The notes: a model not told the origin generated them from the sequence alone. Positions 21,945 to 49,800 are shown, numbered from the stretch's first letter. The stretch is DNA of 64,000 nucleotides from Rheinheimera texasensis (GCF_964031785.1 NZ_CAXIRE010000014.1:59927-123926); one strand, 5' to 3'. Numbers and translations are program-made.

Positions 21945-21980
21945 AAAAAACCGGGCAAAGAGGCATGACTTTGCCACGGT
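21945..21980 (-). terminator. Terminator of the permease-esterase operon
   Basis: Minus strand ACCG(T)GGCAAAG-TCATGCCT-CTTTGCCCGGT followed by T run. Confidence 0.7.
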
Positions 21981-22042: not shown

Positions 22043-23269
22043 TCATTTCTGCGGTTGTTGTAAAAAGGCCTTTAACTCAGGCGCTATCGTCTGAATATTC
22101 AATAATCCATCTAAGTGGCCCATCTGGCCGGGGATCTGCGACAGCTGGTTGGCTGTGCTGCGGGCGCCGTTAGTATCCAGCGCTTGCTGGCTTTGCTGCG
22201 CCATCAAAGGTGTCAGCAATAAGTCGCCCGCCGCTGGCAACCACAGTACCGGCGCTTTGATGTTTTTGATGGCTTGTTGCCAGTTGTCGCCCATGCCGGC
22301 ACGCCATAACTGCGAAGCGCGCACCAGATACAGCAAATGATTGGCGTCCTGCAGCGCGGCGCGCTGAGTGGCGACTGCCAGTAATTGATCAAGCGCAGTG
22401 AAACTGGCGCGGATATCCTGATGGGCGGCTTTGTCCAAGCGTAAATCCGGGTACTTCTGGTTAAAACCGGCTGGATTTAACGCATCTAAAGTCACCCAGG
22501 CCAGCGCCATGGCAAGCCCTGCAGTGGGTTGTTGCGGTTTGTCGTAATAATCGCCTTGTTGCCAGTGCGGATCGGCTTTAATCGGATAAGCCCAACGTTC
22601 TAACTTGATGGCGCTGTAAGCATCGATATAAGCAGTACCGATCACCGGCACCAGCCGCTGCACCCGCTCTGGGTAACGCTGCGCCCATTCAATCGCCTGA
22701 AAAGAACCCATCGAAGCACCGACTACTGCGTGTAGCTTGTTGATGCCAAGACTGTCTAACAATGCTTTTTGCACTTCAACAAAATCGGTGATGGTCACCA
22801 CCGGAAAGCTCAGGCCATATCTTTTACCTGTCGCCGGATTGATGCTGGCAGGGCCTGTGGTGATGACATGTGGATCATTGGCATTGGCATTGGCATTGAC
22901 CAATGTATCAACGCTAACCACATAAAACTGATTGGTATCAATGGCTTTGCCAGGACCAATGATGGCATCCCAATAACCGGGCGCTGCGTCTGTCGCCTGA
23001 TAACGGCCGGCTGCATGTGAAGTGCCGGAAAAATAATGCGTAATTAAAATCACATTCGATTTGTCAGTATTCAGCTTGCCATAGGCTTCCCAGCCGACTT
23101 GCACTTGCTTTAACTGCGCGCCGTTTTGCGTGATAAAAGTTGGCAGTTCAAAGCGCTGTTTTTGCACCAGCGGCAGTTCGGCGGCCTGACTGGCGGCAGC
23201 GCACAGCAGGCCCAACACCAGACTCGATAAAAACCAGCCGTATTTGATGAAATGTCGCATGCGAAACAA
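22043..23269 (-). CDS. Exported MetX(HTA)-fold alpha/beta hydrolase (E22-like esterase)
   Basis: Signal peptide ending ASQA, LITHYFSGTSHAAG, GYWD..IGPGKAIDT, GASMG Ser, GDLL Asp, GHLDG His. Confidence 0.85.
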   Translation of the reverse strand: MFRMRHFIKYGWFLSSLVLGLLCAAASQAAELPLVQKQRFELPTFITQNGAQLKQVQVGWEAYGKLNTDKSNVILITHYFSGTSHAAGRYQATDAAPGYWDAIIGPGKAIDTNQFYVVSVDTLVNANANANDPHVITTGPASINPATGKRYGLSFPVVTITDFVEVQKALLDSLGINKLHAVVGASMGSFQAIEWAQRYPERVQRLVPVIGTAYIDAYSAIKLERWAYPIKADPHWQQGDYYDKPQQPTAGLAMALAWVTLDALNPAGFNQKYPDLRLDKAAHQDIRASFTALDQLLAVATQRAALQDANHLLYLVRASQLWRAGMGDNWQQAIKNIKAPVLWLPAAGDLLLTPLMAQQSQQALDTNGARSTANQLSQIPGQMGHLDGLLNIQTIAPELKAFLQQPQK

Positions 23270-23286
23270 TCCTGTTTAAAAACCGG

Positions 23287-24588
23287 TTAAAACCACTGAA
23301 ACATTAAAATCGCCAGGCCAGTCCCGAGCGCCGGCACTACCACTGTCACTGCCGCGACGGGCCAATAAGCCTGCTGGTGACTTTCGCCACAAATGGCCCG
23401 GATGGTGGTGACCACATAACCGTTATGCGGCAGTGAATCCAAAGCACCGGATGAAATCGCCACCACACGGTGTAACTCTTCCGCGTCGACCCCCCGGTCC
23501 AGATAGACAGGCGCCAGTTCCGGCAGCGCAATGGCCTGACCGCCGGAGGCAGAGCCGGTAAGGCCAGCAATAGCACTGACCGCGACCGCAGCACCCAAGA
23601 GTTCTGGCCCAGGCAGATGGGTCATGGTTTGAACTATGTCGTTAAACGCAGGTGTTAGCTTGGCGACAGCACCAAAACCCACCACAGCCGCCGTGTTGCC
23701 GATGGCCAGCAGAGAGCCCAACACGCCTTCGTTAATGGCTTTATCCAGGCTTTGAATAAAACGCCGGTTCAGCACATACAGCGCCAGCACGCCGCCGCTC
23801 AGCGCTACGATGAGCGCCGCCTGCTGCAGACTATGATGCAGCCAGTTCGATAAACCCAGCACCACCAACAGCGGAATCAGGCCCATTAACGGATGCGGTA
23901 ACTTGCGGTCAGTCAGCTGCGGGTCGCTGTCGCGGCCAATAAAGACTTCACCTTGCGCCACGGCTTTGCGAATCATCTGACTTAACCAGGCATAACCAAA
24001 AGCGGCCATAAAAATCGCCACCACAATACTGACTTCCCAGCCGGCATAAGGCGAAGTGTGCAGATATTGAATAGGGATCCAGTTCTGGATTTCCGGCGAG
24101 CCGGCGGAAGTCATGGTAAAGGTTACTGAACCCAAACCCAGCGCGGCCGGAATAAAACGGCGCGGTAAGTTGGCGTCTTTAAACAAACTGACCGCCATCG
24201 GGTAGGCCGAAAACGCCACGACAAACACCGAGACACCACCATAGGTCAACACGGCACAAGCCAGCACCACAGCGGCAACGGCGTGCGCCCTGCCCAGTTT
24301 TTGCACAATCCATAAAGCGACAGCATCGGCGGCGCCGCTGTGTTCCATCAGTTTGCCGAACAGCGAACCTAACAAAAACATCAGAAACCAGGCGGCGACA
24401 AAACCGGAAAAACCGTTCATGTAAGCGTGGATAAAATCGGTATTACCACTGGCTTGCCAAAACGGAATACCGTTAGTGACAGCGACAAACAAGGCGCACA
24501 AAGGCGCCAAAATAAACAGGTTCAGCCCGCGCATCGTCAGCCAAATCAGCAGGCAGAGCCCGAGCAACAAGCCGGTTAAACTCAGCAT
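23287..24588 (-). CDS. GntP-family H+/monocarboxylate permease
   Basis: About 12 TM segments, GSLFGKLMEHSGAA, LTYGGVS.FVV.F, AGLTGSASGG, LDSLPHNG. Confidence 0.88.
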   Translation of the reverse strand: MLSLTGLLLGLCLLIWLTMRGLNLFILAPLCALFVAVTNGIPFWQASGNTDFIHAYMNGFSGFVAAWFLMFLLGSLFGKLMEHSGAADAVALWIVQKLGRAHAVAAVVLACAVLTYGGVSVFVVAFSAYPMAVSLFKDANLPRRFIPAALGLGSVTFTMTSAGSPEIQNWIPIQYLHTSPYAGWEVSIVVAIFMAAFGYAWLSQMIRKAVAQGEVFIGRDSDPQLTDRKLPHPLMGLIPLLVVLGLSNWLHHSLQQAALIVALSGGVLALYVLNRRFIQSLDKAINEGVLGSLLAIGNTAAVVGFGAVAKLTPAFNDIVQTMTHLPGPELLGAAVAVSAIAGLTGSASGGQAIALPELAPVYLDRGVDAEELHRVVAISSGALDSLPHNGYVVTTIRAICGESHQQAYWPVAAVTVVVPALGTGLAILMFQWF

Positions 24589-24616
24589 AAAAAAGTCCTT
24601 GCTTCGGTTTTTTCTG

Positions 24617-24690
24617 AGTCTGAGCCATCAGGCAGCGTATCTCTATAGTACTAAGGTACAGATTAACATTTCATCAGTTCAGCCTAAAGT
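24617..24690. promoter_or_regulatory. Back-to-back promoters sharing a central activator-type palindrome
   Basis: GTAC-TAAG-GTAC (24648-24659); 25 nt from it on each side lie -10-like hexamers CAGACT (minus, 24622-24617) and TAAAGT (plus, 24685-24690). Confidence 0.65.
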
Positions 24691-24858
24691 AAGGCTATCA
24701 GTCTGAGCGTTTTGTCACTGATTTGCCTGTGCCCCGATTTTTATGACAGCGGGTATTAAGCGGGTTAGTATCACAGCGAAACGCCCGGAGCAACTATAAC
24801 AAGTAACTGAAATAATTCAGAAAGATAAGTGATAGCCGAGATCAGCAGGAGATGCCCG

Positions 24859-27096
24859 ATGGCCCAGAATAACTATAAATTAAACCGTACCACTGACAAT
24901 TCGTTTAAACCGGCGCTGTTGGCGCTGACCATCAGCGCTGTGCTGGCAGGCCCTGTGTATGCACAGGATGCGGCAGCTGGCAAAGATGTCAAAAAAGAAG
25001 AAGCAGCACTGGAAGTGATCCAGGTCACGGCGCGACGCACTGCAGAAAACCTGCAATCGGTGCCGGTGGCGGTGACGTCGATTGGCGCCGAAGATTTAAA
25101 ACAAAAAGGTATCGAAAACCTGACGGCGATTCAACAGCAATCACCGAATACTACGCTGCAGGTGTCGCGCGGCACTAACAGCACTTTAACCGCCTATATT
25201 CGCGGTATTGGTCAGCAAGATCCGCTGTGGGGTTTTGAGCCTGGCGTCGGCATCTACATTGATGATGTGTACATGGCGCGTCCACAAGGCGCGGCAATGG
25301 ATATCTATGATGTCGAGCGCATTGAAGTATTACGCGGCCCGCAAGGTACTTTATACGGCCGTAACACTATCGGTGGCGCGGTGAAATATGTCACTAAGCC
25401 TTTGAGCGGTGAAGACGAGTTTGCTATTCGCGGCACTGTCGGCAGCTACCATCAGCGCGACTTAAAACTGTCTGGCCAGAAAGCCATTACTGACAAGCTG
25501 TCCATCGGTGGAGCCGGCGCATTTTACGACCGTGATGGTTTTGGTAAATACCTCAATACCGGCGCAGAAAACTACAACAAAGACATCATCACTGGTCGTT
25601 TCAGTGCGCAGTATCAGGCGCTGGACAATCTTCGTTTTAACTTTGCCTACGACAAAACCAAAGATGATTCCAATTCCAAAGGCGGCCACCGCTTAACGCC
25701 GAGTTTACTGACCAAAGAAACGCCGCCGTCGAATGTCTACGACTCCAACACCAGTATGCCGGCCACTAACATGGTCCGTACCGAAGGCCACTCACTGACA
25801 ATGGCCTGGGATATCAATGCCGACTGGACGATGAAAGCCATCACTGCCAAGCGTGAAGGCGTCACCGATACCAACATCGACTTTGACTCGACCAAACTGC
25901 CTTCGCTCGATGTGCCGGCGTTTTATGAAGATGAACAAACTTCACACGAATTGCAGTTCCTGTATAACAGTGGCCCGTTGAAGTTTGCGTCAGGCCTGTA
26001 TTCGTTTGAAGGCGACGCCTGTGGTGCCTTTGGTACTGTGCTGGTGTCTGGCCTTGGCGTGACCATCGAAAACGGTGGCTGTGTGCAAACGGATTCTTTT
26101 GCCGGTTATGCGCAGGGTACTTATCAGCTGAATGACCAGTGGTCGTTCACTTTGGGTGGTCGGTATACCGAAGACGACAAAGACGCCAACGTGTATCGTT
26201 ATGTGTATCTTGGCTACAAACTGCCACGCAATACCGCGACCAAAATCGGCACCCAGTCGGATTTTAAAGGCAGTGAAAGTTTCAGCCATTTCTCGCCACG
26301 TGTTGGTTTTGAATATCAGGCCAATGACAGCATGATGGTGTATGGCTCTTATACTGACGGCTTTAAATCCGGTGGTTTTGATATGCGTGGTAACCAGTCG
26401 GTCAACCCAAATGCCGGCGATCCGTACCAGCCAGAAACGGTCGATACTTATGAGCTGGGTCTGAAAAGCGAATGGCTGGACCGCCGGCTGCGTTTAAATG
26501 CCGCAGTGTTTGCCTCAGCTTATGATGATATGCAAGTGACAGTGCAACGTGCGGTGAATAACACTGTGGCATCACAAGTACTGAACGCCGCCAGCGCTGA
26601 TATCAATGGTATTGAGCTGGAAGCCACGGCGGTGGCCAGCGATGCCCTGCAATTTAACCTGATTGTTGGTTATACCGACGCCAAGTTTAACGAAGTGCTG
26701 TTTTATGATGCCGTGACTAAAACCACGTCAGACGTGTCTGGGTTATGGTCCTTTGCCAACACGCCAGAACTGACCGCGACTTTAGGCGGCAAATACACAG
26801 TGGCGATGTATGGCGGCGAACTGGTGCTGAATGCGAACTTGTCCCACCGCAGCGAAACGCAGATTTTTGAGCTGCCATCGATGCTGGACTACGGCGGTTA
26901 CACGTTGTTTAACGCCGGCGCCACCTGGTATTCCGCTGATGGCCACTGGGACGTGTCACTGCAGGGCCGTAACTTAGGCGATAAGATCACCCGCATCGCC
27001 GGTTACAACTTCCCGCTGCTGGCGGCCGAACAAACCATCACGGCCTATTATGGTGACCCAAGAACAGTGAGTTTGTCACTGGGTTACCGGTTCTGA
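24859..27096 (+). CDS. TonB-dependent receptor
   Basis: AGGAG RBS, signal peptide, TonB box EVIQVTARR, RIEVLRGPQGTLYGRNTIGGA, terminal GYRF. Confidence 0.95.
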   Translation: MAQNNYKLNRTTDNSFKPALLALTISAVLAGPVYAQDAAAGKDVKKEEAALEVIQVTARRTAENLQSVPVAVTSIGAEDLKQKGIENLTAIQQQSPNTTLQVSRGTNSTLTAYIRGIGQQDPLWGFEPGVGIYIDDVYMARPQGAAMDIYDVERIEVLRGPQGTLYGRNTIGGAVKYVTKPLSGEDEFAIRGTVGSYHQRDLKLSGQKAITDKLSIGGAGAFYDRDGFGKYLNTGAENYNKDIITGRFSAQYQALDNLRFNFAYDKTKDDSNSKGGHRLTPSLLTKETPPSNVYDSNTSMPATNMVRTEGHSLTMAWDINADWTMKAITAKREGVTDTNIDFDSTKLPSLDVPAFYEDEQTSHELQFLYNSGPLKFASGLYSFEGDACGAFGTVLVSGLGVTIENGGCVQTDSFAGYAQGTYQLNDQWSFTLGGRYTEDDKDANVYRYVYLGYKLPRNTATKIGTQSDFKGSESFSHFSPRVGFEYQANDSMMVYGSYTDGFKSGGFDMRGNQSVNPNAGDPYQPETVDTYELGLKSEWLDRRLRLNAAVFASAYDDMQVTVQRAVNNTVASQVLNAASADINGIELEATAVASDALQFNLIVGYTDAKFNEVLFYDAVTKTTSDVSGLWSFANTPELTATLGGKYTVAMYGGELVLNANLSHRSETQIFELPSMLDYGGYTLFNAGATWYSADGHWDVSLQGRNLGDKITRIAGYNFPLLAAEQTITAYYGDPRTVSLSLGYRF

Positions 27097-27250
27097 TGAC
27101 TAGTTAAAGAAGAAGAGTTGCTGGCGCGGGGCTGTTCAGGCGCTGTGCCTGCCAACTGCGCGACGCCATCAAAGCCGGTGTGAGTGTAATGCTTGCACCG
27201 GCTTGTCTGCTCCCGCATCATGGTTGTTCTGCTGTCTGGACCTGTGACTT

Positions 27251-27898
27251 ATGATTGCCATTATTGCTGATGACCACCCGTTATTCCGTATTGCTTTATC
27301 GCAGGCACTGCAGACGATTCTTGGCCTTGAGGCCAGCCTGTATCAGGCGCACAGCATGGCGCAGTTGTGGCCTTTATTGCGCGAACATCCGGATACCCAA
27401 TTAATTCTGCTCGATCTGAAATTGCCGGATGCTGAAGGTTTTGCCGGTTTAACCGCGCTGCGTACTGAATATCCGGATATTTCTATTCTGATGGTGTCGG
27501 CGATTGAAGACCCGGCCGTGATTAAACAAGCGTTGCAATTAGGCGCTGCCGCTTATCTGCCCAAATCGGCGCCGCTGGACGTGTTAACCGAAGCGGTGGA
27601 CGCTGTGCTGGCGGGGGACACCTGGTTGCCGGCGGATTTACAACAAAGTGTGGCGCAGGCGCAGGATTTGATTGACGCCGAATTTGCCGGGCGGCTCGAG
27701 CAGCTGACGCCGCAACAATTTCGTGTGTTAAAAATGATTGCCGATGGTTTGCTGAATAAACAAATCGCTTATGAAATGAATGTGCAGGAAACCACCGTCA
27801 AGCAGCATGTGTCGGCGATTTTGCGCAAACTCAATGTCAATAATCGTACCCTGGCCGGGATCTTATTTGAAAAACTGAAACTTCCGGATACCCTGTAG
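27251..27898 (+). CDS. NarL/LuxR-family response regulator, CrbR/ErdR-like
   Basis: ADDHPLFR, LLDL phosphoacceptor, PKS; HTH LTPQQFRVL.MIADGLLNKQIAYE..V.ETTVK.HVSAILRKL. Confidence 0.9.
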   Translation: MIAIIADDHPLFRIALSQALQTILGLEASLYQAHSMAQLWPLLREHPDTQLILLDLKLPDAEGFAGLTALRTEYPDISILMVSAIEDPAVIKQALQLGAAAYLPKSAPLDVLTEAVDAVLAGDTWLPADLQQSVAQAQDLIDAEFAGRLEQLTPQQFRVLKMIADGLLNKQIAYEMNVQETTVKQHVSAILRKLNVNNRTLAGILFEKLKLPDTL

Positions 27899-27938
27899 CC
27901 TCTAACTGCCAGTCTTGAGTCTTCCGGGAGAGCGCCAG

Positions 27939-28517
27939 ATGCGCCGAATCACTTTGTTTGTCCTGTCTTGTTCCACTATGTTCAGTATTTTTCCCAGCCA
28001 TGCTACTCAGCTGCAGCCGCAAACCGGTCACTGGCGCAGTCAGCATCAGGTGCTGGTCAATGGCCAGGATATTCTGCAGCAGATGAAAGCACTGCAACAA
28101 CAAATGCTGGCGGCGGTGCCGGCGGAACAACGGGCTTTAGTCGCCGGTATGATGCCGAAAAAAGACTTAAGTACGGCGCAGGAATGTTTAACTGCGGCTG
28201 AAGTCGCGTTGTTAAAAACGCCGGAGCAATGGCTGGCCAGAGCCAAACAGCAGTTACCGCGTTGCCAGTTACAACTGACCGGCAGCACGACCAATTCGGT
28301 GTCAGTCAAAGGCCAGTGTCAGGATCAGGGCGGCTACACCGGCTCGTTGCAGGGCACTGTCACATTAAAAACACCGCAATGGATGCAGATGAACATGCAG
28401 GGCACCGGCCAGTACAAAATGCCGCTGCCGGGCCAGGCACAAAACGGTGACGTGCAGTTTAAACTCGATAGTGACTCGCGTTGGCAAAGTGCCAGCTGCC
28501 CGGCCGGTATGCGGTAA
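27939..28517 (+). CDS. Secreted DUF3617-like protein
   Basis: Signal peptide, TGHW, ECLT, four spaced cysteines ending RWQSASC. Confidence 0.6.
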   Translation: MRRITLFVLSCSTMFSIFPSHATQLQPQTGHWRSQHQVLVNGQDILQQMKALQQQMLAAVPAEQRALVAGMMPKKDLSTAQECLTAAEVALLKTPEQWLARAKQQLPRCQLQLTGSTTNSVSVKGQCQDQGGYTGSLQGTVTLKTPQWMQMNMQGTGQYKMPLPGQAQNGDVQFKLDSDSRWQSASCPAGMR

Positions 28518-28606
28518 GCCGGCGGGACTCGTCTGTTAACCTGATGTTGTGATTGAAATGTGTTTCCTGCATGCTGAAATCTTTCGCAGCAATACAGGAC
28601 AATCAG

Positions 28607-29833
28607 ATGACAACAGCAACATCAGGCAGCGCCGGCCAGCCCAGCTGGCAAAAAACACCGCAAACCGGTTTACAGGTCAATTCAGTGGCAGTCAGTCCGG
28701 ATGGTCAACTGACCGTTGGCGGCACCTCCAGCGAATTTGGCAGCGGGCAGTTTAATTTTTATGGCTTTGACGCGACTGGCCAGCAACTCTGGTCGGTGCC
28801 GGTTACCGCCGCCAACGTCACGCAGGGCATTTTCTGGGTCGCCGTCAGTGACGATAAACGTTTTGCCGCCTGTGGTGGCGAAACCAGTAAAACCTGTGGT
28901 TTTTTGTGTATCCTCGATGCCAGCACTGGCAGTATTCTGTTTCAGGATAACAACTTACCTGCCCGCGTCAATCAACTGACTTTCAGCAGTGACGGCACTT
29001 TGCTGCTGGCGGATTTCCAGCACGAATTACGCTTGTATCACTATGCCAGCGGCAGCACCTTGGTGCCGGTCTGGTCACTGAGTGACAGCTTGGCGCTTTC
29101 GGCCGACTTTTCCAGTTACAGCGCTGTGCTGGCGCCAAACGGCGGCCGGGTTTGGGTCGGCGCTATCAACTACAACGTGAAACCGGTCTACACCGGGCTG
29201 GTGCAGCAGATTGCGCTGGATAACGGCAAATTCGGCGCAGCAACCAGTTATCAGCAAGCACAAGGGGTGATGCGGGTGGTGACGACCACAGATGGCACTT
29301 ATGCCGCCGCGGCGTTACACGATGGCAGCTGCGCGTTTTTTCAGGCGGTACAGCCCAGCACAGCTTTTGTCTATAAACCGGCGCTGACCGGGCTTAATAT
29401 CGCCTATGCCATCGCCATCACTGAAACGCCAGCCAAAGAACTGGTGATAGTGGTCGGTGCTAACCAAGGCGAAGCCGGGGTGTTGTACCGGGTGGATGCA
29501 GAGCAAACAGCGTCTGAGATCGCCAACTATCCCATCTGGGGGCCAGTGCTGAAATGGAGCAAACCGGTGCAATATGCGGTGAATCCGGGCGTGACTTTAG
29601 ACGCTGCAGCAACCCTGGTCAGTGTCACTGACGGTAAACCGGATGAAAGCTCCGGCGGCAGCGATCAAAAGGAATCACCGGGTAACTTTTATCTGTTCGA
29701 CGCTTGCTCTGGGCAGCAACTGTGGCAATATGGCACCAAGCTGATGAACTGGCCAATGATGCTGACGCCGGACGGTAAAACCGCAGTGGGTGGCAGTGAT
29801 GATGGCAGTATTTATTACTGGAATTTGCAGTAA
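28607..29833 (+). CDS. Beta-propeller (WD40/PQQ-like) protein without signal peptide
   Basis: Repeated VAVSPDG / VAVSDD / TFSSDG / LTPDG blades, QQLWS and QQLWQY, GSDDGSIYYW. Confidence 0.7.
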   Translation: MTTATSGSAGQPSWQKTPQTGLQVNSVAVSPDGQLTVGGTSSEFGSGQFNFYGFDATGQQLWSVPVTAANVTQGIFWVAVSDDKRFAACGGETSKTCGFLCILDASTGSILFQDNNLPARVNQLTFSSDGTLLLADFQHELRLYHYASGSTLVPVWSLSDSLALSADFSSYSAVLAPNGGRVWVGAINYNVKPVYTGLVQQIALDNGKFGAATSYQQAQGVMRVVTTTDGTYAAAALHDGSCAFFQAVQPSTAFVYKPALTGLNIAYAIAITETPAKELVIVVGANQGEAGVLYRVDAEQTASEIANYPIWGPVLKWSKPVQYAVNPGVTLDAAATLVSVTDGKPDESSGGSDQKESPGNFYLFDACSGQQLWQYGTKLMNWPMMLTPDGKTAVGGSDDGSIYYWNLQ

Positions 29834-31303
29834 GTGAAACCTGAAGGTCTGGCCCAAGCGCCGCTGTTTGACCGCCAACGTTGGCAAGACCGGCTGCAGC
29901 AATCCTGGTTGCTGCGCAACCTGTTGTTATTGCTGCTGTGGCTGCTGGTGTTTGAGATCGGCTGGCTGGTGGAATATACCCATCACGCCAGTGTCTGGTA
30001 TCCGGTCGCGGGCCTGACTTTCGCATCGTTGTTATTACTGGGTTTTTCTGTGTTACCGGCCTTGTTGACAGGCTGCGTGCTTATCACTTTTTACACCGCC
30101 CGCCACTACAATATTCAGCTGCCGCCGTGGCAAATTCTCGAGGCCGGTTTGTTATTTGGCCTGGCGCATATTTTACCTTATGCCGTCGGTGCTATTGCCT
30201 TGCGCACGCTGGCCAAACGCGGCGCCCGCGATATTAGCCGGATCATCGTATCCTTCCTGGTGATTGCAGCCGTCAGTTCATTTTGTGCCACCTGGCTGGT
30301 GCTGCCGACTTTGGTGATCACTGACATGATGACGGAAGCTGAGATCGCCTCAACCTGGCTGCCGTTCTGGATTGGTGATATGGCCGGTGTCATGGTGCTG
30401 GCGCCGTTTTTTGTTGGCCTGCTGAGTCGGGTTTTACCTGGCGCGCTGTTTCGTCTGACCGATATGGCGGGCCTGCAACAGCAAAAGTTCAGCTCGCGTT
30501 ATCTGTTGAAACTGTTGCTGAACGGTCTGTTACTGACTGCATGCATGCTGCTGGCGAAAGTGACAGATTCACCAAACAGCGCTTTTGCGATTTTTTTCCT
30601 GGTGATCCCGCATATGTGGATCGCCTGTTCCGAATCGGCATTACTTAATGTCAGTAGTGTGGCGCTGTCGAGTTTCCTGATTGCCTTTTGGGTGCATCTG
30701 TTTGATTTGATGGACTATGTGATGGTCTATCAGTTTGCGATCAACGTCATTGCCGCGAACACCTTATTTGGCCTCGCCATTCCGACTTTATTGGCAGATA
30801 ACCTGCAACTGCGCAAAGTGGCTTTTACTGACAGCCTGACACAAGTGGCGTCCCGTGACCGGCTGGAGCAAAGGGCAACGCTTGAGATCAGCCGTAGCCG
30901 GCACGAACAGCGGCCTTTGTCGCTGTTGGTGTTTGATATCGATTATTTCAAAAAAATTAATGATGAGTTTGGTCACCATGTTGGCGATCAGGCGCTGCAG
31001 CAACTGGCGCGTTTAGCCCAGCTGTCGCTGCGACCGACGGATTTGCTTGGCCGTTTTGGCGGCGATGAATTTGTCGTGTTATTGCCACAAACCGCGCAGC
31101 CGGCCGCTTTGTTGATTGCCGAGCGGATTATCAGCGAATTACGCCAGGTCTACATCTGTGATGTCCATCCGCTGACCGCCAGTTTTGGCGTCGCGCAATT
31201 ACAGCCAGACGAAGATTACGAACGGCTGTTCCGCCGCGCCGACCGGGCTTTGTATCAGGCCAAGCTGGCCGGGCGCAATCAGGCTTGTGTCGCGGCCGAC
31301 TAA
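29834..31303 (+). CDS. MASE1-GGDEF diguanylate cyclase
   Basis: Multi-TM N-terminus with WYPVAG and WIGDMAG, TDSLT, DIDYFKKINDEFGH..GD, RPTD I-site, intact GGDEF. Confidence 0.9.
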   Translation: MKPEGLAQAPLFDRQRWQDRLQQSWLLRNLLLLLLWLLVFEIGWLVEYTHHASVWYPVAGLTFASLLLLGFSVLPALLTGCVLITFYTARHYNIQLPPWQILEAGLLFGLAHILPYAVGAIALRTLAKRGARDISRIIVSFLVIAAVSSFCATWLVLPTLVITDMMTEAEIASTWLPFWIGDMAGVMVLAPFFVGLLSRVLPGALFRLTDMAGLQQQKFSSRYLLKLLLNGLLLTACMLLAKVTDSPNSAFAIFFLVIPHMWIACSESALLNVSSVALSSFLIAFWVHLFDLMDYVMVYQFAINVIAANTLFGLAIPTLLADNLQLRKVAFTDSLTQVASRDRLEQRATLEISRSRHEQRPLSLLVFDIDYFKKINDEFGHHVGDQALQQLARLAQLSLRPTDLLGRFGGDEFVVLLPQTAQPAALLIAERIISELRQVYICDVHPLTASFGVAQLQPDEDYERLFRRADRALYQAKLAGRNQACVAAD

Positions 31304-31320
31304 AGATTTAACCCCGGCGC

Positions 31321-34300
31321 TCAGCGCAGCAGGCGTTGCAGCAACCGCTTCAGATTGGCCGGTTTGAGTGGTTTCAGCATAAAGTGAAAGCCGTTATTCA
31401 GTGCATGGTCGCGGGTTTGTTGTTGTTGATCGGCGGAATGGATTAACACCGGCACCTGCAACGCATAATGCTGCTGCAGTTGCATCGCCACTTCGACACC
31501 GGTCGCGCCCTGGTCCAGATGATAATCAAACAACAATAAATCCACCGGATGACCTTCGCTGAGCCAATGCAGCGCCTGAGAAGGCTGCTGCGCCACCAGT
31601 ACCTGACAATCCCAGCTTCTGAGCAATGCCGCGACCGCGCCGGATAATTGCGGGTCGTTATCGAGCAATAAGATTGTTTTACCGCGGAAACTGACCGACT
31701 GCTCACGTGGTTGCAGCGCAGGTGCTGCAGTCGCGCCCGATGCACAGACCGGCACTGTCACGGCAAAACAGCTGCCTTTGCCTGGTTCGGAGTGCAAAGT
31801 CAGCGCATGCTGCAGCAAATCGCTGATGCGCTGGCTGATGGCAAGACCAATGCCAAGGCCCTGATTATTCGCTTCTTTACCCTGCTGAAATTCCTGAAAA
31901 ATCCGTTGTTGTTCATCCGGACTGATGCCGACGCCGGTATCCCAGACTTCAATCCGCACCGCCGGCAGCCCTTGCCAGTGGCAGCGCCGGCAGCCCAACA
32001 GGATTTTGCCTTGTGGGGTGTACCGCAGGGCGTTGGCGACCAGATTCTGCACCACACGGCGTAGCAGACGGCTGTCAGTATCCACCCAAAGCCGGCTTGG
32101 CCGGTAGCGGAAACGAATCGGTTTACCGGTTGAGATTAAGCCGGCTTCGCGGGCGATTTGGTCCAGCAGGCTGGTCATTGCTACCGGCGCTTTTTGCGCT
32201 TTAATCACGCCGGCATCCAGTTTGGTCAGTTCCAGAATACCGGCCAGGAGTTCTTCAGCGGAATTTAACGACGCCGCTAAATCTTTCGCCAGTTGCTGCA
32301 CCTGGCCATCGCTGCTTTTCTCGCGGATCAGCCCGCAAAATAATGCGGCGGCATTAAAGGGTTGCAGCAAATCGTGGCTGGCTGCAGCAAAAAAACGGTT
32401 TTTGCTGGCGGTTTGTTCTTCCAGCTGTTGTTTGGCGGCGGCCAATTGTTGATTAAGTTGCTCCAGCTCGGCGGTGCGGCTCATCACCCGTTGCTCCAGC
32501 GTGCTGTTACTGGCTTCGAGCTGTTGTTGCACCTCGATAAAAGAGCTGACATCGCTGTAGGTTGTAACAAAACCACCGCCCGGCAGCGGATGGCCCTGCA
32601 TCTCAAACACCCGGCCGTCGCGCTGGCGGCGCTGAAAACGATAACTGCTGCCCTGGCGTAAAAAATTCAGCCGTTTTTCTACTTCGGCGCTGATTTGCGT
32701 GGCATCGGGTAGGGCACTGTCATGGAACCAGCCGCGTTCGGCGTTATAACGAATTAAATCCGCGACCGGCCGGCCTACTTCAATCAGGCCAGGCGGATAA
32801 GCAAACATCTGCAGATAACGTTGGTTCCAGGCGATCAGGCGTAAATCGGCGTCCACCACGCTGATGCCCATACTGATATTGTCGATAGTGGCGCGCAGCA
32901 GCGCCTGATTAAACAGATAGACCTGACTGGCTTCGTCGACAAAACGCGCGACAGATTCCAGCGGCAGCTGACTGTTTTTGCCGGCGGCGTTCAGTAACAA
33001 CCGCATCGAAGCACCGCCAACCACAGCTGCCAGCGTACGCTCTGTGCTTTGCTGCAGCGCTTGTGGCGCGCGCGTCTCCAGCTGAGGTGAAACCGATTTA
33101 AACTGACGCTGCAGCAATAAGCGCGCTTCACGCTCGCCGGCAAAACGCCGCACCAGCAGATAACAATCCTGTACTGTCAGCTGTGGCGCCACCTGTTGCG
33201 GTTTTGACTGGCTCTGGCGGAAAAAACGTGCACTTTCCAGATACTCCGTCAGCCGGGTGTGGCTGAGCTGACTGACCAGCAACAGCAGCAAGGTATTCAT
33301 GCTCAGACTGACCACCACCCCGAGGCTTATCAGATCAAACTGGCCACCGAGCAAGGCATTGGGCGCCAACGCCTGCCAGCCAAAAGGCCCCTGGCTCAGC
33401 CAGTCCCAGCGGATTAAACCGGCGCGGCTTAATTCCGGTAACAACAGAATGTAGGCCCACAAACTGGCGCCGCAGAGTAAACCGGCCAAAGCGCCCTGAC
33501 GATTGACCCGGCGGTTCAGCAGGCCAAAAATCAGCGCCGGTGCCAGCTGGGCAATTAACGCAAAGGCCATCAGGCCAAGCTGAGCCAGACCGGTTTCAGT
33601 GCCAATCAATAAGTAGTACAGATAGCCCAGCGTCAGCACGCTTAACATCGATAAACGGCGCAGCGTCACCATGCGGATCCAGGGTTTGCCGTCGGCCGGT
33701 TTCTGCTGCTGGCGGTATATCAGTGGCGTCAGTAAGTCGTTGGTGATCATAATGCCAAGCACCACAGTGGCGACTATCACCATACTGGTGGCAGCAGAAA
33801 AACCACCTAAGTAAGCCAGCAGTGCCATATCGGTGCGATTCGCCGACAGCGGCAGCTGCAACACCACTAAATCGATGCTGGCGCTCTGGCCCAGTAACAA
33901 AGTACCGGCCAGTGCCACCGGCAATGTAAACAGGCTCATCAGCAGTAAATAGCCGGGGAAGATCCAACGCGCATAGCGCAGATGACCCAAATGCTGGATC
34001 TCAACAAAACTGACGTGAAACTGGCGCGGCAGGCATAAAGTCGCGACAAAACCGAGCAAGACGTGGATCCAATACACTGACCAGGGCGCGCCCTGACTTT
34101 GCAGCTGCTGGACGTCGGCTGAGACGGCTGCCTTGGCAAAAATATCGCTAAAACCATCAAACAGCCCAAACACGACAAAAAATCCGACGGCCAGCAGTGC
34201 TAATAATTTCACCAGCGATTCAAAGGCAATAGCCGTCATCAGGCCGGGATTGGGCTGATGCGCTTTGGCGCTGCGACCGACAAATAACATGGCAAATATC

Positions 34301-34833
34301 GCCAGCCATAAGCTGACGTAAAGCCCGGTGTCCTGATACCAGGGCCCGCCGCTGCTGCTGCCGACCAAGGCGTTGATACTGGTCGACACCGCCTGTAGCT
34401 GCAAAGCGATATAAGGAATAACCGCCATCAACACGATGAGTGTGGTGATCACGGCTAATAAGCGGGAATGCCCATAGCGGGTGGCGATAAAGTCGGCGAC
34501 TGAAGTGATACGTAAACGCCGGCAGACAATAGCGATGCGGCTAATCAGGCCAAACGCGAACCAGAACAACAACAAAGAACCGATATAAGTCGGCGGGATC
34601 CACCAGCCATTGACTGCGGCCTGCGCGGTCACGCCATAAAAGGCCCAGCTGGTACAGTAGATGGCGAGGGCAAAACTAAACACCCAGGGCGCGAGCGGAT
34701 GGCGGCCAGTCAGACGCCGGCCGAGCAGCCCGACGCTGTACAGTACCGCCAGATACAGCAGCGACAGCACGGCTATGCTGCCAATGCCAATGCTGCCCTG
34801 ACTCAGAATCATTTCAGAATTTACCGCATTCAC
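31321..34833 (-). CDS. SLC5 symporter-fused hybrid histidine kinase (CrbS/MxtR-like)
   Basis: 13-TM SLC5 region (AIYCTSWAFYG, PYIALQL, LPRQFHV, GGFSAATSMVIV), PAS, SHDLLQP His box, DTGVGI / GLGIGL, C-terminal REC (LFDYHLD); alternative start 34812. Confidence 0.92.
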   Translation of the reverse strand: MNAVNSEMILSQGSIGIGSIAVLSLLYLAVLYSVGLLGRRLTGRHPLAPWVFSFALAIYCTSWAFYGVTAQAAVNGWWIPPTYIGSLLLFWFAFGLISRIAIVCRRLRITSVADFIATRYGHSRLLAVITTLIVLMAVIPYIALQLQAVSTSINALVGSSSGGPWYQDTGLYVSLWLAIFAMLFVGRSAKAHQPNPGLMTAIAFESLVKLLALLAVGFFVVFGLFDGFSDIFAKAAVSADVQQLQSQGAPWSVYWIHVLLGFVATLCLPRQFHVSFVEIQHLGHLRYARWIFPGYLLLMSLFTLPVALAGTLLLGQSASIDLVVLQLPLSANRTDMALLAYLGGFSAATSMVIVATVVLGIMITNDLLTPLIYRQQQKPADGKPWIRMVTLRRLSMLSVLTLGYLYYLLIGTETGLAQLGLMAFALIAQLAPALIFGLLNRRVNRQGALAGLLCGASLWAYILLLPELSRAGLIRWDWLSQGPFGWQALAPNALLGGQFDLISLGVVVSLSMNTLLLLLVSQLSHTRLTEYLESARFFRQSQSKPQQVAPQLTVQDCYLLVRRFAGEREARLLLQRQFKSVSPQLETRAPQALQQSTERTLAAVVGGASMRLLLNAAGKNSQLPLESVARFVDEASQVYLFNQALLRATIDNISMGISVVDADLRLIAWNQRYLQMFAYPPGLIEVGRPVADLIRYNAERGWFHDSALPDATQISAEVEKRLNFLRQGSSYRFQRRQRDGRVFEMQGHPLPGGGFVTTYSDVSSFIEVQQQLEASNSTLEQRVMSRTAELEQLNQQLAAAKQQLEEQTASKNRFFAAASHDLLQPFNAAALFCGLIREKSSDGQVQQLAKDLAASLNSAEELLAGILELTKLDAGVIKAQKAPVAMTSLLDQIAREAGLISTGKPIRFRYRPSRLWVDTDSRLLRRVVQNLVANALRYTPQGKILLGCRRCHWQGLPAVRIEVWDTGVGISPDEQQRIFQEFQQGKEANNQGLGIGLAISQRISDLLQHALTLHSEPGKGSCFAVTVPVCASGATAAPALQPREQSVSFRGKTILLLDNDPQLSGAVAALLRSWDCQVLVAQQPSQALHWLSEGHPVDLLLFDYHLDQGATGVEVAMQLQQHYALQVPVLIHSADQQQQTRDHALNNGFHFMLKPLKPANLKRLLQRLLR

Positions 34834-34880
34834 CGCGAAGCCTTTGATTGTGCCTCAGATTTTGTTAGCAGGAAAGGGCG

Positions 34881-35633
34881 CTAGCGCGCCGTCCAGCCAC
34901 CGTCGAGCACCAGCGTTTGCGCCGTGATATGGCGGGCCGCGGCTGTGGTCAGAAACACTGCGGTTGCGGCAATTTCATCGACGCCAATAAAGGCTTTTTG
35001 TGGCATTGGCGCCAGCATGATTTTTTCGATGACTTCGGTTTCGCTGAGCTGATGTTCTTTGCACTGAGCAGCAATTTGCGCATCTACCAATGGCGTACGC
35101 ACATAAGCCGGGCAGATAGTATTGATAGTGAAATCAATATCAGCGTTCTCCAGTGCTACCACTTTACTAAAGCCAAGCAAACCGTGTTTGGCCGCGACAT
35201 AAGCCGACTTAAACGGCGAGGCGACTAAGGCGTGAATAGAGCCGATGTTCACAATCCGGCCAAAACCGCGGCTGCGCATGCCTGGCAATAAGGCTTTACT
35301 CAGCATCGCCGGGCCGGTCAGCATCACCTGTAACAGCTGCTGCCATTTGTGTTCCGGAAATTCTTCCAGGCGCGCCACGTGCTGGATACCGGCGTTATTG
35401 ACCAATACATCCACCTGGCCTGCGGCTGCAGCGGTATTTTCAATACTGTCCTGAGAGGTTAAATCCAGCAGCAACGCGCTGGCTTTGGCGCCGCTGGCGA
35501 TCAGTTCTGCCGCTTTTTGTTCGGCGACGGCCAGATTAATATCGGCCAGGATCACTTCGTCGCCCTGAGCGGCATACGCCTGTGCCACCGCAAAGCCAAT
35601 ACCGCCGCTGCCGCCTGTGATCAGTACCCGCAT
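34881..35633 (-). CDS. bdhA: D-3-hydroxybutyrate dehydrogenase
   Basis: TGGSGGIG, NNAGIQHV, SPFKSAYVAAKHG, ICPAYVRTPLVDAQI, MPQKAF, DGGWTA: HBDH subfamily signatures. Confidence 0.9.
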   Translation of the reverse strand: MRVLITGGSGGIGFAVAQAYAAQGDEVILADINLAVAEQKAAELIASGAKASALLLDLTSQDSIENTAAAAGQVDVLVNNAGIQHVARLEEFPEHKWQQLLQVMLTGPAMLSKALLPGMRSRGFGRIVNIGSIHALVASPFKSAYVAAKHGLLGFSKVVALENADIDFTINTICPAYVRTPLVDAQIAAQCKEHQLSETEVIEKIMLAPMPQKAFIGVDEIAATAVFLTTAAARHITAQTLVLDGGWTAR

Positions 35634-35666
35634 AACACCCTCTGCTGTTGTTGTGTGCTTTGCTGC

Positions 35667-35713
35667 AGGGTAGAAGTTTGCGGTCAGGCGGTAAACGGTA
35701 CTTTAGTGCTATA
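35667..35713 (-). promoter_or_regulatory. bdhA promoter with the shared palindrome
   Basis: Minus strand TATA-GCACTAAAGTAC-cg-TTTACC-17 nt-TACCCT. Confidence 0.65.
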
Positions 35714-36047
35714 CCGCTGAATGGTTGGCAACAGTCGGTGAAAATAACAACAGCAGTGCAATTAACTCAGACTCTTCACGCATGTAAATTCAAATTAGAT
35801 AGCAGAGAAACTCAGACACAGCCGTTCATAGCGCTGAGCGCTCAGAAAACCGCACAAGACTTTGCCAGAACCCATATCTATGATATGTTTCGGCACATAA
35901 TAAAAAAATTATCTTGTGCTTCCCACGCAGTTTAGACCGTAAAAAACTCTTGATAACAATGTGTTGTGCCATTGTTTCGCGTTAAGTCGGAAAAAGTCCT
36001 GCTCAGTTGCACTTCATTCTGTAGACCTGTCACGTAAGGAATTCTGC

Positions 36048-37298
36048 ATGCAGACTTCAACCGCATTGATCACCAACGACGCCGTCGTGCTCGGCCTGTT
36101 GGCGCTTATTTTAGGCTTTGTGTTTCATACCAGTGCCAGTAACCATCCGTTCTGGCAGAAGTTTTATAAATACGTGCCTTCGGTATTGTTGTGTTATTTC
36201 ATTCCGTCGTTGTTTAACACTTTCGGCATTATCGATGGCGATACCTCAAAACTCTATGAGATGGCGTCGCGTTATCTGTTACCAGTCTGCTTAGTGCTTT
36301 TGACACTGAGCATTGATTTTAAAGCTATTTTAGGACTCGGCCCTAAGGCACTGGCGTTGTTTCTGACCGGTACCGTCGGTGTTGTGCTCGGTGGCCCCAT
36401 TGCGCTTGCGACTGTGGGTACTTTCTTCCCTGAGCAAATGGGCGGTGAAGGCGCTGATGCGGTCTGGCGTGGTATGGCAACTATCGCTGGTAGCTGGATC
36501 GGCGGCAGTGCCAACCAGGCGGCGATGAAAGAAGTGTTTCAGCCGAGTGGCGAAATCTTCTCGGTGATGATCACTGTCGATGTAGTCGTCGCAAATTGCT
36601 GGATGGCGATCCTGTTGTGGATGGCGGCCAATGCGTCCCGTATTGATCAGGCCAATGGCGCTGATACCCGTGCCATTGAAGCGTTAAAAAGCAAAATCGA
36701 AAAGTACCAGGCGGAAAATTCGCGTAATCCGTCTACGTCAGATTTGATTAAATTACTGGCTGTTGGTTTTGGTTTGGCCGGTGTTGCACATTGGTTGTCA
36801 GACTATATCGTGCCATTTATCAAAACCCATGCGCCGGAACTGGCGATGTACAGCCTGACCAGCAGTTTCTTCTGGATTGTGGTGCTTGCGACGACTTTTG
36901 GTTTGTTATTGTCCTTTACCAAAGCGCGGGAACTGGAATCAGTCGGCGCGTCTAAAGTCGGCTCTGTGCTGGTGTATGTGCTGGTCGCCAGTATCGGGAT
37001 GCATATGGATATCACCGCAGTGGTGGATTATCCGGTGATGTTCCTGGCCGGTGTGGTTTGGATTTCGTTCCACGGTTTACTGATGTTTGGCATGTTACGC
37101 CTGTTAAAAGCACCGGCGTTTTATATGGCTGTCGGTAGTCAGTCGAATATCGGTGGTGCAGCGTCAGCTCCTATTGTTGCAGCAGCTTTCCATCCGGCGT
37201 TAGCGCCTGTTGGTGTGTTGCTGGCGGTATTAGGTTATGCGCTTGGCACTTATGGCGGTTACCTGTCAGCATTAATTATGCAGTCGATTGCGCCTTAA
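36048..37298 (+). CDS. DUF819-family membrane protein
   Basis: AAGGA RBS, about 11 TM, GSWIGGSANQAAM, SQSNIGGAASAPIVAAAF, LGYALGTY. Confidence 0.85.
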   Translation: MQTSTALITNDAVVLGLLALILGFVFHTSASNHPFWQKFYKYVPSVLLCYFIPSLFNTFGIIDGDTSKLYEMASRYLLPVCLVLLTLSIDFKAILGLGPKALALFLTGTVGVVLGGPIALATVGTFFPEQMGGEGADAVWRGMATIAGSWIGGSANQAAMKEVFQPSGEIFSVMITVDVVVANCWMAILLWMAANASRIDQANGADTRAIEALKSKIEKYQAENSRNPSTSDLIKLLAVGFGLAGVAHWLSDYIVPFIKTHAPELAMYSLTSSFFWIVVLATTFGLLLSFTKARELESVGASKVGSVLVYVLVASIGMHMDITAVVDYPVMFLAGVVWISFHGLLMFGMLRLLKAPAFYMAVGSQSNIGGAASAPIVAAAFHPALAPVGVLLAVLGYALGTYGGYLSALIMQSIAP

Positions 37299-49592: not shown

Positions 49593-49800
49593 TATTAATC
49601 CTGTTGCAAAAGATGGTACATTAGTACCACAGTTCCTTTTTAAAGCGATGCTGCTCAGTCGTTACAACAGGATGACTGGTCTAACTCGCTGATTTTTATT
49701 TTGTTTTACTGGAAGCAGCAGCTGCTGCGTGAATTTCCAGTCTGATTTTTAATCAGGGGTCTTGTTATTTGTCAAAATTATTATATGCTGAACTGAAAAA

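Follow-up and report, generated by a model that had tools for sequence, protein, structure and literature searches.

The stretch of DNA analysed here, called the window throughout, comprises 64,000 nucleotides of the genome of Rheinheimera texasensis (GCF_964031785.1, NZ_CAXIRE010000014.1:59927-123926), and its positions 22043-35713 hold a set of genes that probably serve the acquisition of ester-bound 3-hydroxybutyrate (3HB) from outside the cell. An earlier note, made from the sequence alone, had placed there a TonB-dependent receptor (TBDR) divergent from an operon of a permease and an exported esterase, together with a CrbR-like regulator, a CrbS-like kinase and bdh, the gene for 3HB dehydrogenase (HBDH). 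Using the list of open reading frames (ORFs) and two profile libraries (Pfam-type and NCBIfam), we find all of these genes where the note had put them. The esterase, a MetX-fold protein of the E22 family (22043-23269, minus strand, likely ATG at 23260; NF005262), follows a GntP-family permease (23287-24588, minus strand; PF02447), which is the first gene of the operon, with 17-26 bp between the permease end and the esterase start. A terminator-like hairpin with a T-run (21954-21975, minus strand), picked up by a consensus scan only, ends the operon within the 153-bp gap that comes behind the esterase stop codon. The TBDR gene (24829-27096, plus strand), divergent from the permease gene, has its likely ATG at 24859 with AGGAGA ahead of it, and downstream lies the gene for an ErdR/CrbR-family regulator (27251-27898, plus strand) with a REC domain and a GerE domain, the latter a LuxR-type helix–turn–helix (HTH). 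Further along, the gene for a hybrid kinase of 1170 amino acids, SSF(SLC5)-PAS_7-HisKA-HATPase-REC (31321-34833, minus strand), is found 47 bp downstream of bdh (34881-35633, minus strand; TIGR01963).

These genes are tied together by a palindrome that the earlier note had described as common to the permease/TBDR and bdh promoter regions. Both copies are found, as TAGTACTAAGGTAC at 24646-24659 and as TAGCACTAAAGTAC at 35698-35711 on the minus strand, and no other perfect match to TAGYACTAARGTAC occurs in the genome (4.69 Mb), for which our own estimate of the chance expectation is about 0.14. When the genome is scanned with a position weight matrix built from operator sites of many genera, the two sites rank first and second (31.6 and 23.3 bits), the next best hit reaches 17.7 bits, and most of the other hits lie inside genes. 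The operator has a length of 14-16 bp and the form TAGYAC-N4-GTAC, the full palindrome being TAGTAC-N4-GTACTA. Operator 1 (TAGTACTAAGGTACAG, 24646-24661) lies between the back-to-back promoters of the permease and TBDR genes, 58 bp from the permease ATG, and operator 2 (TAGCACTAAAGTACCG, 35696-35711, minus strand) abuts a -35-like hexamer, TTTACC, about 65 bp before the bdh ATG. Toward the TBDR, a promoter-like TTAACA-16-TAAAGT (24663-24690, plus strand; consensus scan) begins 1 nt past operator 1. Toward the permease, a weak minus-strand TAGAGA-17-CAGACT was read by eye; with operator 1 centred near -41.5, the permease transcript would in our reading start about 24 nt before its ATG. The CrbR ACTU motif, which spans -52 to -36 just ahead of the RpoD promoter (PMC5715377), has the same placement directly upstream of the -35 element.

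The operators and the gene order around them are conserved well beyond this genome. The 16-bp operator in the permease/TBDR spacer is invariant in 20 congeneric genomes (and doubled in one clade), and the bdh-side operator is also kept across the genus, though spacer lengths differ and the proteins are only 65-80% identical. Outside Rheinheimera, the operator recurs in 34/34 permease/TBDR spacers, never with more than 2 mismatches and with a consensus of ATAG[TC]AC-N4-GTAC[TA], whereas shuffles predict about 0.002 occurrences per region. The gene order in 20 other genomes of the genus, for which, as for all relatives, the ORFs are our own simple calls, reads esterase-permease, TBDR-regulator, variable genes and then kinase-bdh-DUF819-LacI, with the bdh-kinase part lying just past the first 20 kb fetched in 2 genomes. 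The earlier note had proposed a synteny search as a check, and a scan of one genome per species gave 80 loci, of which the 74 of at least 12 kb were counted. The permease stands beside the esterase in 72/74 of these, a TBDR is present next to the permease in 68/74, and the regulator is present after the TBDR in 65/74; linkage of the kinase to the cluster likewise extends across genera. At least 13 genera keep esterase, permease, TBDR and regulator together (Rheinheimera, Arsukibacterium, Alishewanella, Alkalimonas, Gallaecimonas, Bowmanella, Pseudoalteromonas, Thalassotalea, Paraglaciecola, Alteromonas, Aestuariibacter, Lacimicrobium and Aliiglaciecola). The exceptions are 2 Wenzhouxiangella loci, in which the esterase homologues sit among housekeeping genes and are uninformative.

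The arrangement falls into three layouts. The Rheinheimera group has the layout of the window (layout A). In Pseudoalteromonas and Thalassotalea (layout B), permease, esterase, bdh, scoA and scoB follow one another in one string, and the scoAB products score 247 bits against a cut-off of 128 (TIGR02429) and 323 against 244 (TIGR02428), so that, as far as the profiles tell, layout B encodes a complete route from 3HB to acetoacetyl-CoA. In Alteromonas, Paraglaciecola, Bowmanella, Aestuariibacter, Lacimicrobium and Aliiglaciecola (layout C), a further gene stands between esterase and bdh. It encodes an exported protein of about 330 amino acids with the catalytic domain of a type-2 short-chain-length polyhydroxyalkanoate (scl-PHA) depolymerase (NF050059, 354-385 bits against 280) and without a substrate-binding domain. 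Some Bowmanella and Lacimicrobium clusters also carry an acyl-CoA ligase gene after bdh. In a genome of another family (G053) the system is split: one contig has the TBDR and, divergent from it, an exported esterase, and another contig holds permease-esterase, regulator and kinase-bdh-scoB-scoA. The 20-mer CATAGTACTAAGGTACAGCG occurs unchanged in both spacers, as the sole perfect hit in each 20-kb locus, and this identity at unlinked loci places the TBDR and the exported esterase in the same regulon as 3HB catabolism. Of the two E22 paralogues in this genome (L052:9419-10546 and L051:10187-11344), the one paired with the TBDR has a signal peptide and the one in the permease-bdh-scoAB cluster has none.

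The esterase is a member of the E22 family. NF005262 (E22-family MetX-like esterase) matches it with 559.5 bits, the cut-off being 450, and it scores 413 bits with the structure of esterase E22 (5JKF), with about 60% identity over 371 residues (34-404), and the catalytic triad S186/D349/H385 is invariant. A Sec signal, MRHFIKYGWFLSSLVLGLLCAAASQA/AE, is predicted at its N-terminus (...LGLLCAAASQA/AELP), and the esterase orthologues have a signal peptide in 80/80 of the related loci, with a lipobox in some; export, as predicted, is a trait of the family in this gene context. A true homoserine O-acetyltransferase MetX was considered and rejected, the scores being 254 bits against 331 (NF001209) and 235 against 500 (TIGR01392), with a Sec signal present. 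The window esterase reads GHLDG where E22 reads GHLEG, that is, His-Leu as opposed to the His-Asp of MetX, and the deposited variant 5JKJ restores the Asp (GHD). Alignment to the Haemophilus influenzae MetX (2B61) shows that the Arg and Tyr of the GLxxARxxxxxTY motif are changed to Leu and Ala. We take this Arg, this Tyr and the residue of the His-Asp pair to be those that bind homoserine in MetX, and their replacement suggests an E22-type hydrolase rather than a transferase. An argument that a carboxylate-binding Arg of MetX is kept, as would fit a 3HB leaving group, was dropped, as Arg/Tyr/Asp have become Leu/Ala/Leu. From its gene context, we propose the protein as the putative periplasmic hydrolase of 3HB esters or oligomers.

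The receptor has the Plug (PF07715, 72 bits) and barrel (PF00593, 156 bits) domains, a TonB box LEVIQVTA and a signal AVLAGPVYA/QD. Its best family hits are siderophore-receptor models, all well under their cut-offs (TIGR01783, 162.9 bits against 223.5), and no siderophore equivalog is found above cut-off. We propose that it imports soluble 3HB oligomers or esters across the outer membrane. When the window receptor (24829-27096) is compared with those of L043, L044, L072, L074 and others, two versions are seen at this locus in the genus and its neighbours, either about 65-83% or about 47% identical to it, while the permeases are 78-85% identical, which suggests a replacement of the receptor at the locus, as judged from these identities. 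The permease, a proposed importer of 3HB, matches PF02447 with 35.8 bits against 22.5 over its N-terminal part only (residues 4-140), and it reaches no NCBIfam equivalog, indicating a divergent branch of the GntP family.

On the catabolic side, bdh scores 324.9 bits against a cut-off of 307 with TIGR01963, the solved structures closest to it are all of HBDHs, and it keeps the S-Y-K triad and the residues aligned to Q94/H144/K152/Q196 of Pseudomonas fragi HBDH (1WMB), which are presumably those that bind 3HB. The next genes of the pathway, scoAB (C21:336450-337857), are found at the end of a leucine-catabolic cluster, and we rejected them as members of the regulon, given that the nearest site, TAGTTCTAAAGTAG, breaks the AC core and sits inside the preceding gene. 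No PhaC_N domain, the hallmark of PHB (poly-3-hydroxybutyrate) synthases, was found in the genome, so that 3HB would come from outside, and no protein of the whole genome hits the known family of 3HB-oligomer hydrolases (PF10605) above cut-off, meaning that the known kind of oligomer hydrolase is missing. The earlier note was correct that the window contains no PHB depolymerase gene. However, an exported protein of 338 amino acids with a type-2 scl-PHA-depolymerase domain is encoded elsewhere in the genome (C21:386541-387557; NF050059, 371 bits against 280), and a type-1-like esterase at C17 is borderline (148 bits against 150). The genome's seventh-best operator hit (15.4 bits) falls in the promoter of the depolymerase-type gene at C21, 2 nt before a TTGACG -35 hexamer. 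We aligned 8 upstream regions of this gene, from its own genome and 7 metagenome contigs (proteins 55-94% identical), and found 20/22 invariant columns in the block CTGTAC[CT]AAAGCACTATTGAC; CTGTACCAAAGCACTATTGAC, the operator-like site with its -35 (within C21:386435-387557), is the sole conserved upstream stretch among the orthologues. The gene is thus probably controlled by the regulator of the window operators or by a close relative of it. The cross-feeding that the note had deduced from the window is thereby weakened and no longer well founded, as the organism has a depolymerase-type gene of its own with a conserved operator-like site.

The sensor pair has the architecture of CrbS/CrbR, with SLC5, PAS, HisKA, HATPase and REC domains in the kinase and REC and LuxR-type HTH domains in the regulator. 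The genome encodes three ErdR-like regulators, all below the cut-off of the ErdR model (NF041830, 390 bits); the window regulator scores highest with 229 bits, followed by 199 and 169 bits, and the third, at C7, is paired with a NahK/ErcS-like kinase. Another locus (C24:438489-453038) holds a VC_2705-family symporter, a small DUF4212-like ORF, an SLC5 kinase of 1270 amino acids, an ErdR-like regulator and acs, and is the probable canonical acetate system. The window kinase is 37% identical to the kinase of this locus from end to end (residues 51-1168), and the window regulator is 44% identical to the regulator beside acs. The acs promoter has an ACTU-type site, GTAGACTAATGTCTAA, with GAC/GTC half-sites (TAGAC-N4-GTCTA), and the genome-wide scan for perfect matches does not find the GTAC operator of the window there. 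The presence of a second SLC5 kinase and regulator at acs, and the difference between GTAC and GAC/GTC half-sites, thus indicate that the window pair is a paralogue with an operator of its own and not a system that controls acs/actP through ACTU. We propose that the regulator is the activator that binds the operators and that the kinase may be the sensor of 3HB.

Several other features of the window and genome deserve mention. A third match in the window, at 49616-49629 (TGGTACTAATGTAC; perfect palindrome GGTACTAATGTACC), has 2 mismatches to the operator and GTAC half-sites; it stands 24 bp ahead of the start of a gene for another TBDR of 870 amino acids (46980-49592); it was rejected as an activator site, being too near the start codon. 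An operator-like GATAGTACTTTGGTTATGCA (17.0 bits) is found at C15:170999, between a class-II amidotransferase-like gene and a gene for a FadE-like acyl-CoA dehydrogenase of 783 amino acids. A strong hairpin, AAGCCGGTG...CACCGGCTT, occupies 27172-27205 in the spacer between TBDR and regulator, without a clear T-run (spacer fold z = -2.4), and may be an attenuator or a processing site. The earlier note had treated 22043-35713 as one regulon; this holds for the core genes and fails for the plus-strand insert at 27915-31303 (DUF3617, WD40-like propeller and MASE1-GGDEF genes), a variable stretch outside the conserved core that differs between species, with only part of the genus having these genes and other genera lacking them. 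The insert genes lie on the same strand as the regulator with gaps of 16, 35 and 0 bp, and if they are co-transcribed with it, a 3HB signal could reach cyclic di-GMP signalling. Divergent from bdh is a gene for a DUF819 membrane protein (35961-37298), kept there in the Rheinheimera group only, which has its own promoter-like site (35862-35889) and no operator on its side.

Taken together, an exported esterase, a permease, a TBDR and bdh that share one operator and one sensor pair, with scoAB or a depolymerase domain added in relatives, leave the uptake and hydrolysis of 3HB esters as the only economical reading, for which PHB-derived oligomers are the obvious natural source. We consider it probable that the regulon is devoted to taking up ester-bound 3HB from outside the cell, most likely as soluble dimers and oligomers of PHB. 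In this scheme, a single-domain exported esterase of the PHA-depolymerase type (encoded outside the window here and in the operon in Alteromonas-type relatives) would free soluble products, which the TBDR would carry across the outer membrane. The Sec-exported E22-family esterase would cleave them to 3HB in the periplasm, and the GntP-family permease would import the 3HB. HBDH would then oxidise it to acetoacetate, which ScoAB, encoded elsewhere here and in the operon in Pseudoalteromonas and Thalassotalea, would convert to acetoacetyl-CoA. The SLC5/STAC-type hybrid kinase, a paralogue of CrbS, may sense 3HB or a close product and activate the ErdR/CrbR-family regulator, which would bind TAGTAC-N4-GTACTA-type operators abutting the -35 boxes of the permease/TBDR and bdh promoters. 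Since the regulator gene stands behind the TBDR gene and the kinase gene behind bdh, induction should reinforce itself. The core of what the earlier note had proposed, a scavenging regulon for 3HB and its esters, is thus supported by synteny, by an operator kept across genera, by co-regulation of unlinked genes and by scoAB and the depolymerase domain in relatives; the entry of oligomers through the TBDR and their cleavage in the periplasm we still infer.

A number of observations weigh against this reading. Dimers and trimers of 3HB (190-280 Da) could pass porins, and a TBDR is then not strictly needed. The best solved match of the receptor reaches only 58 bits, and it has no characterised close relative. 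Operator 1 is about 200 bp from the TBDR start in the window, which makes the assignment of the TBDR promoter uncertain. With the homoserine-binding residues lost, the MetX fold does not speak for a leaving group that bears a carboxylate, and E22 has reportedly been characterised only on artificial short-chain esters, as an isolated enzyme without a physiological substrate or a genomic role. The G053 paralogue without a signal peptide hints at some cleavage of 3HB esters, perhaps of the dimer, in the cytoplasm as well. In R. texasensis, scoAB has only a poor operator-like site and lies within the leucine-catabolic cluster. Finally, a search for RNA sequencing of this organism found its sequence in DNA and metagenome runs only, the RNA runs being of distant relatives with at most 0.16 of the sampled words.

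The main rival is that the regulon deals with free 3HB only, the TBDR capturing the monomer, or some other small acid, with high affinity and the E22 protein being a passenger, a general periplasmic short-chain esterase. For growth on the monomer, the permease, bdh, scoAB and a carboxylate-type SLC5 sensor suffice, TBDRs exist for small nutrients, and no natural substrate has been demonstrated for the E22 family; Pseudomonas putida, moreover, uses a permease and a dehydrogenase for 3HB (10.1101/2020.07.04.188060). However, the esterase is co-regulated with the TBDR even where it is unlinked from the permease, and relatives place a PHA-depolymerase catalytic domain in the same operon, both of which indicate that selection has kept ester hydrolysis coupled to 3HB catabolism. 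A passenger esterase is hard to reconcile with the cross-genus conservation and the genes added in relatives, and we regard the monomer alone as an unlikely substrate. Rather less likely in our view is that the architecture is as described and the substrates are other short hydroxyacyl esters, such as 3-hydroxyvalerate-containing scl-PHA fragments or alkyl and lipid esters of 3HB, among which PHB oligomers would be one of several. The acyl-CoA ligase after bdh in some Bowmanella and Lacimicrobium clusters and the cytoplasmic esterase paralogue of G053 could be understood in this way, and the esterase family is not known from anything but generic ester assays. The dehydrogenase nevertheless retains the substrate residues of HBDH, and the extra hydrolase of the relatives is specifically of the scl-PHA depolymerase type.

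Two further explanations were considered. A TBDR with a periplasmic alpha/beta-hydrolase is the layout of PfeA/PfeE and IroN/IroE, and the best family hits of the window receptor, far below the cut-offs as they are, do come from siderophore-receptor models, so that hydrolysis might serve to free iron from a pirated ester siderophore. That the receptor reaches no siderophore model at cut-off, that neither promoter region has a Fur box above background (best 12/19, as in random windows), that the control is by a carboxylate-type two-component system and that relatives have bdh and scoAB in the same operon make this very improbable. Equally improbable, and already contradicted, is an ordinary acetate-switch regulon of CrbS/CrbR that happens to lie beside unrelated genes. 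The kinase and regulator domains match CrbS/CrbR and the operator resembles the ACTU motif (PMC5715377), but another full-length SLC5 kinase and its regulator are encoded next to acs and a VC_2705-type symporter, at a locus that has the ACTU-type site, the operator with GTAC half-sites is absent from the acs promoter, and the linkage to esterase, permease, TBDR and bdh is kept across 13 genera.

If the regulon for ester-bound 3HB is as we propose, it would assign a function to the E22-family esterases, which are so far known from a metagenomic screen only and frequently carry the name MetX in annotations. PHB and its kin are major carbon stores of bacteria and leading marine-degradable bioplastics, and the capture of their soluble products in dilute water is poorly described; a receptor, a periplasmic hydrolase family, a permease and a sensor could then be named for this step in many common aquatic genera. 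The regulon would also add a new signal and operator to the few SLC5-fused kinases that have been studied, and the gene set could serve as a compact marker for consumers of PHB products in metagenomes. Whether the wider picture holds, in which Alteromonas-type aquatic gammaproteobacteria share a conserved polyester system resembling a polysaccharide utilization locus (PUL), with a TBDR for PHB oligomers, E22 proteins as the missing periplasmic oligomer hydrolases and a 3HB-sensing CrbS paralogue with a GTAC operator, is to us an evenly balanced question. If it does, no earlier example would be known of TonB-dependent uptake serving a storage polyester, and E22-family esterases would have a first physiological role.

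The closest relative of the esterase, E22 (5JKF/5JKJ, from a deep-sea sediment metagenome), is of the same family and has the same triad, the same His-Leu and the same loss of the homoserine Arg and Tyr; what sets the window esterase apart is its place in a conserved regulon, beside a TBDR and the catabolism of 3HB, and its predicted export. Known 3HB-oligomer hydrolases (PF10605, extra- and intracellular in Ralstonia/Cupriavidus) and extracellular scl-PHA depolymerases act in the same proposed reaction, from oligomers to 3HB after depolymerisation of PHB. The MetX-like esterase is unrelated to these enzymes in fold and family, and coupling to a TBDR is not described for them in the literature that we searched. 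Among systems led by a TBDR, such as the SusC/D PULs, the chitin and alginate loci of Alteromonadales, the polyethylene glycol (PEG) operon of Sphingomonads with PegB (PMC11644497) and PfeA/PfeE, there is a shared logic of cutting outside the cell, passage through the TBDR, trimming in the periplasm and import by an inner-membrane permease, under a dedicated sensor. The window system differs from them in its substrate class, a bacterial storage polyester, in its SLC5-fused kinase pair and in having no SusD-like partner. Reviews name TBDRs for PEG and alkanes only, and we found no report linking a TBDR to 3HB oligomers or PHB products in the literature searched.

With regard to regulation, the SLC5/STAC kinase systems listed as studied in the literature searched are CrbS/R, CbrA/B and RpuS/R (PMC9100948). 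CrbS/CrbR (MxtR/ErdR) resembles the window pair in its SLC5-PAS-HK-REC kinase and LuxR-type regulator, in an ACTU operator that is an imperfect inverted repeat with an AC-N4-GT centre directly upstream of the -35, and in a regulon comprising a transporter and the first catabolic enzyme for a small carboxylate. The window pair is distinguished by its GTAC half-sites, by its targets (TBDR, exported esterase, GntP permease and bdh, not acs/actP) and by its presumed signal, 3HB. The nearest metabolic counterpart is PP_3073-PP_3075 of P. putida, which encode a 3HB dehydrogenase, a GntP-type 3HB permease and a sigma-54 regulator (10.1101/2020.07.04.188060). Like the window, it combines a GntP permease (the two being likened by family) with an HBDH for exogenous 3HB, feeding AtoAB/ScoAB, but it has neither a TBDR nor an exported esterase, and its regulator is of another type. 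Each component of the window system is thus of a known kind, and what is new is their combination and the apparent substrate.

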